IMG/VR virus record: IMGVR_UViG_2541047874_000003
DNA length: 54,334 nucleotides
Source: a virus
Taxonomy: Duplodnaviria > Heunggongvirae > Uroviricota > Caudoviricetes
Direction: 5' to 3' (one strand)
Shown: piece after piece, positions 48,001 through 54,000 of the stretch
Numbering within the stretch: the stretch's first letter is position 1
Layout: each line of letters opens with the position of its first letter
Position numbers: made by a program

Positions 48001-51000
48001 TTGGCCACGACTACAGCTGCGGCAAACCTTTATCTTAATCCTGACCCCGCAATTTCGTCTGTTCTGCGGTCAACATCGTCTATCCGCTATAAACATTCAG
48101 TAGAGACGATAGATTCAGAGCACGCCGATCTCATTTTCAGGATGCGCCCTGTGTGGTACAGGTCGCAATGCGAAAATGACAGGCGTGACTGGGGATTCTA
48201 CGGATTGATTGCCGAGGAAGTAGGAGAAATTGCCCCTCAGTTTGTACACTGGCGACCAGCTAACGAGAATGATGCTCCTGAAGCTATTTCCAGCAATGGC
48301 CTTGTTGCCGAAGGTGTAATGTACGAACGTCTGGTTGTTCCACTGATTCACCATATCCAGAAACTGACTGAAAGAGTTGATGAACTTGAGTCAGAATTGA
48401 AGTTGTTATCAACTTCCCGAAGCGATATCGGATAAAGGAGGAGTAATGGATATAACACCTTTTCTTCATGCACTTTGTGCTGTGGCTGCGCAGCTACTGA
48501 TTGGTCTTTTTACCGGGAACTGGGCTTACGGGGCGATAGCCGGTTGTACGTTCTTCATTGCGCGTGAACACACCCAGGCAGAATATCGCTGGATCGAAAT
48601 GTTCGGGCATGGCAAGCGAATGAATATGCCGTGGTGGGGCGGTTTTGATACACGTGCATGGGATGTGGCAAGCCTGATGGATTTTGCTGTGCCGGTGGTG
48701 GCGTGTCTGCTGGTCTGGCTGTTGGTTAATCGTGGGTGAAAAAAGGTGAGCTGTATATGCAACGGAGGAAGAAACCCCGTTGCTGGAAGCCTGGAAAAAG
48801 TATCGGATGCTGCTAAACCGTGTGGACACTTCCGTAGCACCAGATATCGAGTGGCTTATTCAACCATAATAAACAGTATGTATATCATAGGTTATGGATT
48901 TGCCCCTATATTTCCAGACACCTGTTATCACTTAACCCATTACTGGCCTGCTGCCGCAGATATTCCCGTGGCGAGCGATAACCCAGTGCACTATGCGGAT
49001 GCCATTCGTTATAATGCTCGAACGCCTCTGCAAGGTTCTTTGCTGCCGTTAACCCGTCTGGTTTAGGCATGATACTGATGTAGTCACGCTTTATCGTTTT
49101 CACGAAGCTCTCTGCTATGCCGTTACTCTCCGGACTCCGCACCGCCGTGTTCTTCGGTTCAAGCCCCAACATCCGGGCAAACTGCCGTGTTTCATTAGCC
49201 CGGTAGCATGAACCATTATCCGTCAGCCACTCTACTGGAGACGCCGGAAGCTCGTTGCCGAAGCGGCGTTCCACCGCTCCCAGCATTACGTCCTGTACTG
49301 TTTCACTGTCGAAGCCGCCCGTAGTGACTGCCCAGTGCAGTGCCTCACGGTCACAGCAGTCCAGCGCGAACGTGACTCGCAGTTTTTCTCCGTTATCACA
49401 GCGGAACTCGAACCCGTCAGAGCACCATCGTTGATTGCTTTCTTTCACGGCCACTTTGCCAGTATGTGCCCGTTTCGATGGCGGTACAGCGGTTTTTCGC
49501 TCAAGCAACAGCGCATTCTGGCGCATGATCCGGTAAACACGTTTGGCATTGATCGCAGGCATACCATCAAGTTCGGCCTGTCTGCGAAGCAGCGCCCATA
49601 CCCGACGATAACCATACGTGGGCAGCTCTCCGATAACATGGTGTATACGGAGAAGCACATCCGTATCATCTGAGTGACGGCTGCGGCGACCATCTTTCCA
49701 GTCATCGGTTCGTCTGAGAATTACGTGCAACTGCGCACGCGACACCCGGAGACAACGGCTGACTAAGCTTACTCCCCATCCCCGGGCAATAAGGGCGCGT
49801 GCGCTATCCACTTTTTTGCACGCCCGTATTCAACGGCTTCTTTAAGGAGTTCATTTTCCATCGTTTTTTTGCCGAGCAGGCGCTGGAGTTCTTTAATCTG
49901 CTTCATGGCAGCAGCAAGTTCAGAGGCAGGAACGACCTGCTCTCCTGCGGCCACAGCAGTAAGACTTCCCTCCTGGTATTGCTTGCGCCAGAGAAATAAC
50001 TGGCTGGCTGCCACACCGTGTTGCCGGGCAACAAGGGAGACCGTCATTCCCGGTTCAAAACTCTGCTGAACAATAGCGATCTTTTCCTGTGTAGTACGCC
50101 GTCTGCGTTTCTCCGGTCCTAAGACATCAATCATCTGCTCTCCAATGACTAGTCTAAAAACTAGTATTAAGACTATCACTTATTTAAGTGATATTGGTTG
50201 TCTGGAGATTCAGGGGGCCAGTCTAGGTTATTAATTGTGAGTTTTTTCGGTGTGTTATTTGTTTGTTTGATGTTATGCTTTTGCGCCCCAAAAGGTTGTT
50301 TAGATGTATTTTATCAATTGATTTTCAATATCGTTTAATAAAGAAAAATTAAGCAAGCTGGATGTTGGTTTTTTGTTAATTGAATGGTTCTAATAATGTT
50401 TTTTTACTGTTGTTGAATGTGACTTGATAAGAAATGCAAGTAAAAATGATACTCTTTTTATTTTAAATTCAAACGGTTGACATATATATAGCAAGAGGTT
50501 TCAGGTGCGTTGTAGTGAGTTTATGTTAATAAAAAGCATAGTAATCGTTGAAAAAATGTAACTTTGAAATACGTTAGAATAAAAAACAATATACATATAA
50601 TAATTTAATCTTAAATGAAATTTATTAAAATTTGCAAACTATAATTTTGTGTATAAAAATATAAATGCACATCATCCTGATTATGATTGTGTATTTAATT
50701 GGTTGTTATTTGACTACTATCAACTTGTTTTAATTTTATGATAGGTGCAAGATGGATTATGTTTGCTCCGTAGTTTTCATCTGTCAATCATTTGATTTAA
50801 TTATAAACAGGAGAGTTATCTCGTTCAAAAAAAATTCATTGTTTATTGTAAGCGACAAAATTAGAAGAGAGTTACCAGTATGCCCCTCTAAACTAAGAAT
50901 TGTTGATATAGATAAGAAAACATGTTTATCCTTTTTTATCGACGTGAATAATGAGTTGCCTGGCAAATTTACTCTTGATAAGAATGGCTATATTGCTGAA

Positions 51001-54000
51001 GAGGAACCTCCATTATCGCTTGTTTTTTCTCTGTTTGAAGGGATTAAAATAGCAGACTCACACTCCCTTTGGTTAAAAGAAAGACTATGTATATCCTTAC
51101 TTGCCATGTTCAAAAAACGCGAAAGTGTAAATTCATTTATACTAACAAATATAAATACATTTACCTGTAAAATTACTGGAATAATCAGTTTTAATATTGA
51201 GCGGCAATGGCATTTAAAAGATATTGCGGAATTGATTTATACGAGTGAAAGTTTAATAAAAAAAAGATTAAGGGATGAAGGAACGTCATTTACTGAAATA
51301 TTGAGAGATACTAGGATGAGGTATGCAAAAAAACTCATAACTTCAAACTCTTATTCTATCAATGTCGTAGCCCAGAAATGTGGCTATAACAGTACTTCAT
51401 ATTTCATATGTGCATTTAAAGATTATTATGGTGTCACGCCATCTCATTATTTTGAGAAAATAATCGGCGTCACAGATGGAATAAACAAAACAATTGACTG
51501 ATAATATTTATTACAAGTTGTCTACATGTTAATTATAATATTATACAGCGTGTTTTTTGATGTGATATTCTGGAACCATTAATTTGTAATTGGGTTGCTG
51601 TCGCCTATTTTATACACACTATAATTGATGGTTTTCTATGTGATTTAGTTAATAACCTTCTGGGTTTATTTTAAGGGTTAATTGTTACATTGAAATGGCT
51701 AGTTATTCCCCGGGGCGATTTTCACCTCGGGGAAATTTTAGTTGGCGTTCTTAAAATGTGTACTTAAGACCAGCAGTAGTGATGAAGTTATAGTTTTCTA
51801 TGCCTGCTCCATTTTTGCTGTAGTCTGAAGTGTTATTATTGTGATCATAAAGTGAAGTATTACCTTTTTTATTCGTAACCCGATTCCATGCGCCTTCAAC
51901 ATAAACTTTTGCGTTAGGTGTGACGTAATAACCTGCATTGACTGCAACAGAATAGTAATTTTGGTCTTTGACCTTACTGCGATAAGTGATTCTTTTTCCC
52001 GGGTCATAGTGTTCATCGTTATCAGATGATTCCACCCAGCCGCTGTATTTAAATGTGCCACCTAGCTCAAAATCTTCATAACGATAACTTCCAGTCAAGC
52101 CAATGTAGGGCATTTTAAAACGTTGTTTGTAGCCGATTGCTCTTTCTCCATTCGGGAAGGAGCCGATATCATCTCTGAATCCCTCCTCAGAACTGTAGAT
52201 ATAGGAACCACCTCTGGCTGTAAAGCTATAACGGCTTTCCTGATATCCGGCCATGAGTCCCAGGCGGTAATTGGGTTCGTTGAGGAGCCAGCCTTTGATA
52301 TTCAGATCAAATTCGTTGGCATAATTGAGTTGTGTATCAGGATGTCTACTTTCATCCGTCCAGGTTCCGGGGTTACTGGAATCCATCCAGTCCTGATCGA
52401 CCATATTGCCACCTCGGCTGCCGAGTGTTGTCCAGCCAGCAGCCCCGATAGATATCTGAGGCATCAAATCCCAATTAATTGCACCTTTAATAATTGCAGC
52501 GTTATTGAATTTCCAGTCAAGTTGACTGACTTTTCGGCTTCCTTCTTCGGCTAGATAAACACGCTCTTTTGTTTTTCCGCTCAGAGTTCCAAGACTAATG
52601 TCCGCATTTATGTTGTCAGGAGTAAACGATAAAGTCTCGGTAGAAGCAAAAGAGTTGATCGCAATAGGGGTTGTCAGGACTATTCCCAGAAGTTTCGCCC
52701 GCATAAAAGTTCTCCATTCAATCGTTTTAATGATTGAATATGTATTTTTTATATCTAACTTAATGGGTCAATTACATATTGCTCCACTGTTTATATTTTG
52801 TTTAGTATTGAATGATTATCACAATGCGCTATCTGTTTTTGGTTTAATTATCTGTTATTGTTTCATATTGCGGTTTTACTGTGTGGTTTTTTTATGATTT
52901 TGTGGTGCTTTTATCTATTTAAGTGCCATGCCTTTAGAGGCATATAAGCGAAAATAGCATGAGGTTTATCCTCAATTACTATGTTTTTTAGTACAAAAAA
53001 GAGGGACAAAACTGAGACACATAAGGCCTCACAAAGGTCTGCAAGGCCTCACATGTATTGAGATGTTAATAAAATGTAGGCTTGTAATTTTGATATAAAT
53101 GGTAGATAAAACCTTTCCCCAAAATAAAAACGAACGTCAATGAAATCAAACGGTTGAATAAAGTTGATTTTGGCTAATAAAAAGACAATAAAATAATTTT
53201 TATCATTAAATATCAATGAATTGAACTTAATGTTTTTATATACTGCTGCGCCATATGGGCTGGACTGAAGCGGCTGACCTGATTGTTAAAGGTATGGAAG
53301 GCGCAATCAACGCGAAGACCGTAACTATGACTTCGAACGTCTGATGGAAGGCGCTAAGCTGCTGAAATGCAGCGAGTTTGGTGATGCGATCATCAAGAAT
53401 ATGTAATCACTACAAGTGTTAAATATTATAACGGGCGTATAACACGCCCGTTTTTTTTGTTAGCTTGCTAAGGGTTATCAAAACCCCCTGATAGTTTGGT
53501 GGGGCAGATAGCAGTTCTACTCATTGTGGCGATGCTTTTTTCTCCGGCCGAACCGTGGCTGATGCCATGTAGCTCAAGTACCTGACAGCGTAATACGGCA
53601 CATCTGCCGTCTGGTTTTCCAGAACGGTTTTTCCAGTATTTGTAGCTACTGCGATGAACCCCGAACACGTGGTAGAGAGTGACCACAGGATAACGCGCCC
53701 TGAGTTTCCCGATTATCGAGAACTGTTCAAGGGAGCCGCATCAAGAGCACGGTAGCCTTTTTAAATATTTCGTTTTCCATTTCAATTCGTTGTCGCTTTT
53801 TCTTTAGCTCACTTTTTCCCGTATCTGTGATAAGTTAAGCGCAATGATAGACTTTTTATGTCTGTGTTAGGGTATTAATACAAACCCGCAGATATACGGT
53901 TTTTTGCTTCGGTAATTCACAGGTAAATCCGAAAAGATCTTCGCCAGCGGACTGCCGGAGATGAAATGTTATGTTCAGCAATTTCGGAAAACTGACTTGT

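Follow-up and report, generated by a model that had tools for sequence, protein, structure and literature searches.

appY and ompT as probable cargo of an icd-integrated lambdoid prophage joining a DLP12-type right arm to a phage-21-type integration module

How do appY and ompT, two genes of the K-12 prophage DLP12, come to lie beside a fragment of icd, and do they belong to the phage at whose end they are found? The question is raised by a stretch of viral DNA of 54,334 nucleotides (IMG/VR record IMGVR_UViG_2541047874_000003; its full length is called the window here). A first reading of this stretch, made from the sequence alone, had placed both genes inside a prophage and proximal to its right attachment site, attR, and had seen in them a module that moved between prophages. 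Our analysis indicates that appY and ompT are very probably accessory cargo at the right end of a lambdoid prophage of ~53.5 kb inserted in the 3' end of icd, in which a DLP12-type arm was most likely joined to a phage-21-type att-int module by homologous recombination within a hairpin.

The two genes, which are convergent, are those named by the sequence-only reading (Table 1). AppY is identical to the K-12 protein at 249 of 249 residues, and OmpT departs from its K-12 counterpart at two (N17 for S and S56 for G), one of them in the signal peptide. Pfam and NCBIfam agree with these identities: OmpT scores 702 bits against the omptin subfamily model NF008222 (cut-off 537), and for AppY, which has no specific model in NCBIfam, the models for GadX, YdeO and HilD gave sub-threshold matches only. 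The catalytic residues of omptins are Asp83, Asp85, Asp210 and His212 in mature numbering, and the window's protein keeps all four (D83, D85, D210, H212). OmpT helps the cell to resist antimicrobial peptides. AppY is a regulator encoded by DLP12 that activates acid-stress, biofilm and anaerobic genes and rewires the regulation of acid stress, biofilm formation and motility, and prophage genes of this kind are discussed as morons (PMC10057817).

The window is nearly exactly one lambdoid prophage, ~53.5 kb long and placed by an integrase of the phage 21 type. We traced both of its borders in the source genome (GCA_000459855.1, scaffold KE701379.1, a scaffold-level assembly), in which one locus corresponds to window 1–16878 (L040) and another to window 45751–54334 (L029), both at 100%. 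The first of these reaches 3.9 kb further left and contains a full-length icd (416 amino acids, aa) whose stop codon is separated from the integrase gene by 113 bp, and beyond the intact icd come rluE, nudJ and mnmA, marking this as the attL side. In genomes with an identical integrase protein, a full-length icd adjoins as well. Right of attR stand an IS3-family remnant, a 97-aa open reading frame (ORF), a Y1 transposase gene, a YebC-like gene, pdeG, ymgF, ymgD and minEDC, and these genes are the chromosome downstream of icd. With the intact icd and the integrase on the left, the tail-fibre genes at 45038–48435 and the icd pseudogene fragment to the right of ompT, the module does lie inside the prophage, next to attR and between the tail-fibre region and the icd-derived fragment, as had been read from the sequence.

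Table 1. Positions in the window of the features that define the appY-ompT module, its borders and its junctions.
Feature	Position	Strand	Details
Integrase, phage 21 type	1–1143	-	377/380 residues identical to phage 21 Int (M61865.1)
tfa' remnant (tail-fibre assembly gene), left end of the block shared with DLP12	48759–48894	+	96.4% to K-12 DLP12 just upstream of appY
IS2, splitting the shared block; not cargo	48895–50225	-	1331 bp; IS2-type terminal inverted repeats; transposase ORFs of 136 aa and 301 aa
AT-rich region upstream of appY, presumed regulatory	50231–50751	+	GC 0.25; 4 differences from K-12
appY, AraC-family regulator	50752–51501	+	249 aa; HTH_18, HTH_AraC (Pfam)
ompT, omptin outer-membrane protease	51751–52704	-	317 aa; Pfam Omptin PF01278, 2e-129, residues 28–317
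Region upstream of ompT	52705–53016	-	GC 0.29
sib/tI-like hairpin, probable recombination junction	53017–53056	-	18-pair stem, dG -24.6 kcal/mol, z -4.3, then U-rich tract
P arm of phage-21-type attP	53063–53243	+	92% to phage 21 att region (M61865.1); 96% to phages 4A7, 1W, 3W and Lambda_4C10; no DLP12 match
icd 3' pseudogene fragment, attR (core + B' arm)	53244–53407	+	164 bp; supported by an alignment of seven att sequences
icd transcription terminator, displaced host copy	53430–53452	+	Terminator-like hairpin, then T run; homologous to the terminator after intact icd at attL

The icd 3' ends at attL and attR form an imperfect direct repeat of ~215 bp (53244–53458) with 21 differences, in which the longest identical run is 53276–53313; the reading frame of the displaced fragment is broken by a 1-bp deletion near 53325. 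Searches of the whole window found no second icd-like core outside 53244–53460, no argU core or fragment and no tRNA. We compared this end with that of strain 582, the closest relative among complete genomes, in which the whole of a 3-kb query carrying the module matches one place only, an icd prophage. Identity to this prophage is 99.9% over window 50224–53259 (4 mismatches); from 53260 on, within the icd fragment, the mismatches are closely spaced, and the sequences cannot be aligned past about 53458, ~50 bp beyond the fragment. Past the att repeat, the window's host and strain 582 carry different genes. Given the repeat, the lack of any other icd or argU core and this step in identity, we place the att core downstream of ompT; a core upstream of appY, which would leave the two genes outside the prophage, was looked for and none was found. 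With the cargo inside attL–attR, and int, xis and both att arms intact, excision by Int and Xis would take appY and ompT out of the chromosome.

A core upstream of appY is what one would expect if the two genes were host chromosomal DNA, or an older island, that happened to lie by icd. Their base composition could be read in this way, the GC content of 50231–53062 being 0.34 (0.25–0.32 near appY), compared with 0.47 in the remainder of the prophage, and so could the IS2 insertion and the truncated tfa that separate the module from the tail-fibre genes. However, the one icd-like sequence of the window lies on the far side of ompT, and the interval between ompT and this fragment, not the DNA upstream of appY, contains the sib-like hairpin and the phage 21 P arm. 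In the phages Kati and PhiR68_2, moreover, tfa'-appY-ompT stands right beside attP and int, and in K-12, strain 582 and Z1323HEC0016 the icd fragment is followed directly by iraM, ycgX or bluR, with no appY-ompT on the host side. We therefore consider a chromosomal origin of the pair highly improbable.

The host side of attR has peculiarities of its own. The K-12 genes iraM-ycgX-bluR-bluF-ycgZ-ymgA-ariR-ymgC are missing from it (window 53458–54334 and positions 1–10300 of locus L004), and in their place stand an ISEc52-like IS3 remnant, an unannotated 97-aa ORF (54041–54334), a Y1 transposase of the REP-associated type, a YebC-like gene and a CxxCxxCC gene, followed by pdeG. Window 53813–54334 has no megablast match among complete E. 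coli genomes, and no complete E. coli genome covers the whole of the right-hand 1.4 kb (52900–54334).

The place of appY and ompT, with tail-fibre genes on one side and attP on the other, corresponds to that of the lambda b region, and the two genes count as 'morons': they lie inside attL–attR, they are absent from phages 21, 4A7, 1W and 3W, which share the att arm, and their GC content differs from that of the surrounding phage DNA. Lambda itself has b-region cargo between tail fibres and attP and the late-region morons lom and bor, and a lom homologue is at 44380–44979 in the window. The long hairpin of the window, on the int-sense strand ~190–230 bp past the core, aligns with a stretch of lambda, but lambda is without appY and ompT.

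Where, then, does this right end come from? Comparison with MG1655 bears out the statement that K-12 carries the same genes in the right arm of DLP12 at a different chromosomal site, between a tfa' remnant and an argU-derived attR and beside envY. The block common to the two elements comprises 48759–48894, with the tfa' remnant, and 50226–53062, with appY and ompT, at 96–99% identity; over the second part, identity is 99%. The tfa'-appY-ompT segment, ~99% identical in DNA over 2.84 kb, has the same order, orientation and spot just inside attR, and the likeness extends to a PhoP-box match and the sib-like hairpin. Strain 582 and K-12 have the tfa' remnant annotated as a partial tail fiber assembly protein, and at the same position PhiR68_2 and 2G7b have a short tfa ORF. 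DLP12, however, is a ~21-kb remnant without head or tail genes, which ends in an argU-derived core (~65 bp past the end of homology in K-12) and has IntD at its other end, whereas the prophage of the window is full length, its block is split by IS2, and this block ends in the phage 21 P arm and the icd core.

Beyond the block, the relatives are of another kind. The integrase, on record with the Pfam families Arm-DNA-bind_1 and Phage_integrase, is 99% identical to that of phage 21, and the 181-bp P arm between the hairpin and the icd homology, besides its matches in Table 1, is also matched in phage ev017. Phage 21 (M61865.1), 4A7, 1W, 3W, Lambda_4C10 and ev017 all have this P arm, an icd-like segment and a P' arm with three copies of TTCCCCAAAAC, and their integration duplicates the icd 3' end. 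In the window the three tandem TTCCCCAAAAC repeats beside int are putative arm-type motifs, and TTCCCCAAAAT at 53115, in the P arm, is a near-copy with one mismatch. None of these phages has appY or ompT to the left of the sib-like element, however; only positions 2766 or 2773 to 3022 of the 3-kb query match them, and in phage 21 the sequence left of the element is unrelated to the window. The icd pseudogene feature of the M61865.1 record is placed beyond xis, yet the icd-like sequence lies between the P arm and int (about 537–700 of the reverse complement); the coordinates of that feature appear to use the numbering of the opposite strand.

The two ancestries meet at the hairpin. Differences from K-12 are sparse up to 52897 and clustered at 53031–53057, and the homology stops at 53062; homology to phage 21 begins at 53003. 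In the alignment the window follows DLP12 and Kati to the left of the hairpin and phage 21 to the right of it, which maps the join to within about 150 bases. The hairpin lies 188–227 bp from 53244, and its minus strand is the int sense strand in the circular phage. A five-way alignment shows it to be conserved in the window, DLP12, Kati and phage 21, in all of which it is stable, with lambda, where it aligns at about 27.47–27.51 kb, more distant and its hairpin weaker. We take this part of lambda to be the sib/tI retroregulator, roughly 200–250 bp past the att core, and by analogy the hairpin of the window would work as a sib/tI element, that is, as an RNase III and terminator site. The most likely history is one of homologous recombination within this ~60-bp element, conserved among lambdoid phages, by which a phage-21-type attP-int-xis segment would have become linked to a right arm of the DLP12 type, and we think it probable that recombination occurred at the hairpin rather than that homology merely ends there. 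Phage Red-type functions may have taken part, as genes for Exo, Bet and Gam are present in the window. Experiments have shown that exchange of segments between lambda and DLP12 is efficient, driven by homology and dependent on Red (PMC3945230).

The proposed transfer of the module between prophages is in this respect upheld, a DLP12-type block being present in an icd prophage, but it needs refinement on two counts. First, the join can equally be read as a phage-21-type att-int module put onto a DLP12-like backbone, because other segments are also shared with DLP12 (the exo fragment at 100%, P/ren at 94–95%, the nin region at 94% and the lysis genes at 89%) and because the same repressor protein occurs with an icd-type integrase, with an argU-side integrase and with a third integrase beside a TorS-like gene. 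Second, the exchange need not have been between resident prophages, since deposited phage genomes hold the same cargo. In Kati and PhiR68_2, where it adjoins attP and int directly, the integration site is of the argU type, and Kati carries an argU-type core and a 387-aa integrase beside it. Phage 2G7b (genus Nesevirus) has ompT at the same place with an alpha/beta hydrolase gene instead of appY, and in ev243 (also Nesevirus), in Turner and in several PhiR phages the match is confined to ompT, so that appY and ompT look like separable units. Kati, PhiR68_2, 2G7b and ev243 resemble the window in that the cargo lies between the tail-fibre region and attP-int, and they share its right border (query 2832, window 53062), but Kati and 2G7b differ in their argU-type attP with a 387-aa integrase. 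Another element with the same target gene is e14 of K-12: it has a displaced icd 3' pseudogene at attR beside iraM, and is a defective element of 15 kb with other cargo (lit, mcrA), whereas the integrase of the window is of the phage 21 type. A search of the literature found no paper on appY-ompT in an icd-integrated or phage-21-type phage.

A chimera of this kind might also arise without any recombination between phages, if a cell with both DLP12 at argU and an icd prophage underwent a chromosomal rearrangement between the two, IS-mediated or by inversion or translocation. The region is rich in IS elements, and an IS2 stands at the very edge from which the module had first been drawn: position 50231, the left coordinate of the sequence-only reading, is the first base past this IS2 and its target duplication. 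Yet the 5-bp duplication (GGTTA at 48890–48894 and 50226–50230) and the empty site in relatives (strain 582 and L022, L023, L024, L028, L030 and L031) make the IS2 a simple insertion, and the junction that it interrupts here is uninterrupted in those relatives. The right junction, moreover, lies in a conserved phage element and not at the end of an IS, there is no argU fragment in the window, and the genes of the icd neighbourhood have their normal order on both sides of the prophage. We regard such a rearrangement as a very improbable origin of the arm and retain phage recombination at the hairpin.

The flanks of the genes are AT-rich, as had been noticed from the sequence, with GC contents of 0.25–0.29 against 0.47 in the rest of the prophage (0.28 for 53017–53243), and both hold only short ORFs. 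On the left, the only ORF of 50231–50751 is one of 46 aa that overlaps the left edge; on the right, PhiR68_2 has a hypothetical protein annotated at the equivalent place, and the flank contains a PhoP-box match, the sib/tI-like hairpin and the P arm of attP. The PhoP-box match, TGTTTATATTTTGTTTA at 52788–52804, about 85–100 bp upstream of ompT, is perfect and has the same bases in K-12; the pattern KGTTTA-N5-KGTTTA has this one match in the whole window, with 0.01 expected by chance. AT-rich DNA is of the kind typically silenced by H-NS. In a lysogen, appY and ompT would be expressed from their own, host-controlled regulatory regions, to judge from what is known of these genes. Rfam gave nothing significant on the module; its sole match, sub-threshold and partial, is to IS009 over the tfa' remnant (48737–48835; 54 bits, gathering score 117). 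IS009 is a K-12 candidate small RNA.

We then looked at how widely this right end is distributed. Of 5,426 complete E. coli genomes, 3,839 have partial matches to the module and 822 have both genes, but the ompT-to-icd' junction was found in strain 582 only; three further genomes, with Z1323HEC0016 as their representative, carry appY and a truncated ompT in an icd prophage. The exact OmpT variant found here is indexed in 533 blocks of a larger set of assemblies, and all 10 of the contexts inspected showed appY-ompT-icd' by tail-fibre genes. Other assemblies (L022, L024 and L031, also L025–L027) have the appY-ompT-P arm-icd' block by tail-fibre genes and match the window up to 53483, after which comes a second lambdoid remnant (ASCH, DUF1317, exo/bet fragments, emrE, a hydrolase gene and a ybcL-like gene); L031 has ybfA-kdpFA instead of the chromosome downstream of icd. 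These layouts suggest tandem prophages or a rearrangement.

Several observations weigh against the cargo reading or against parts of it. The window and strain 582 are 99.6–99.9% identical over 48445–53259, but 89–97% identical in the rest of the prophage, and the right end therefore has a separate and more recent history, which is also compatible with a later exchange or with an origin as a remnant. In the latter case, the 97-aa ORF, tfa', appY, ompT and the P arm would be left over from an earlier icd prophage beside which a later phage integrated in tandem, the internal att site and the old int region being subsequently deleted, and the cargo would not come from the present phage. The jump in identity at 48445 fits this account, the truncated tfa' could be the scar of the deletion, and the genomes in which the same block is followed by a second lambdoid remnant demonstrate that complex or tandem ends do occur. 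No internal att core is left in the window, however, the tfa' scar is already present in Kati, PhiR68_2 and 2G7b and thus predates the present prophage, and the order of tail-fibre cluster, 97-aa ORF and tfa'-appY is common to several genomes. The functional outcome would in any case be the same, as all that lies between attL and attR would excise together. On balance we judge the origin as a remnant unlikely, and the two genes to be cargo of the present prophage.

The remaining points on this side concern the att site, the regulation of the genes and the fitness of the phage. The strand-exchange core can at best be placed within 53244–53313, the seven att sequences showing mosaic polymorphisms. 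A scan of the module for sigma-70 promoters found 14 with 13.5 expected, no excess over chance, and what argues for an autonomous promoter is the PhoP-box match together with prior knowledge of these genes, so that such a promoter stays putative. Finally, the prophage may no longer form phage, owing to its two IS insertions (IS2 and one of the Mutator family), although the placement of the cargo inside the att sites is unaffected by this.

The second of these insertions, a Mutator/IS256-family IS at about 15360–16674 with a 402-aa transposase (15432–16640), follows the Q antiterminator gene at a distance of ~57 bp. Strain 582 lacks it, and its two flanks overlap there by 8 bp. By parting Q and the late promoter region from the genes for lysis and structure, this insertion could ground the prophage. 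The gene content otherwise looks like that of a complete lambdoid phage. Int, a cI-like S24 repressor, O, terminase, a P22-type coat protein, tail tube, tape-measure protein and tail fibres were found in the window, the gene calls of the source genome add Exo, Bet, Gam, P, RusA, Q and J, and Xis, nin genes, lysis genes, portal and Lom complete the set.

Other parts of the prophage carry further cargo and signs of mosaicism. Between the cI-like repressor and kil, at 5305–6878, are genes for a HipA_2-like kinase and a DUF3037 protein, which may form a pair with a toxin or defence role. Only 2 contigs of the whole collection have the exact HipA_2 protein on record, against >38,000 blocks for the neighbouring repressor. 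From the lysis genes to terminase (21023–24352) there is more cargo: a gene for a TrkH-family cation transporter of 491 aa, which recalls trkG of the Rac prophage, and genes for a ParB_N-domain protein and for a TET-associated glycosyltransferase (TAGT), a pair that suggests a DNA-modification module. In the prophage of strain 582, which is otherwise similar, the head genes are of the lambda type, and the window's head and tail-shaft module at 20709–38825 (T4-type large terminase, DUF4055 portal, Mu F-like protein, P22-type coat protein) bears no relation to them. The early region, the tail tip and the right end are common to the two prophages, which gives another pair of mosaic breakpoints.

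The case is a further instance of the well-known mosaicism of lambdoid phages, involving well-known genes, and leaves the current understanding unchanged. What it adds concerns the mobility of these genes. It is usual to regard appY and ompT as fixed parts of the DLP12 remnant; in the window they are found in a full-length prophage at another locus, with intact int, xis and att sites, and in agreement with the deposited phage genomes the pair remains mobile, to be gained or lost by lysogeny or excision. Curing strain 582 of its icd prophage would probably remove its appY-ompT pair. The junction in a ~60-bp conserved element illustrates cleanly how homology guides the exchange of modules in lambdoid phages. 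As a tentative extension, which we regard as possible rather than probable, the sib/tI hairpin beside attP might be a general 'linker' for reassorting integration modules with right-arm cargo, with appY-ompT still circulating on viable phages of at least two specificities (argU and icd). If this is true, continuing lysogeny would determine whether E. coli lineages carry ompT, in how many copies and at which chromosomal site.

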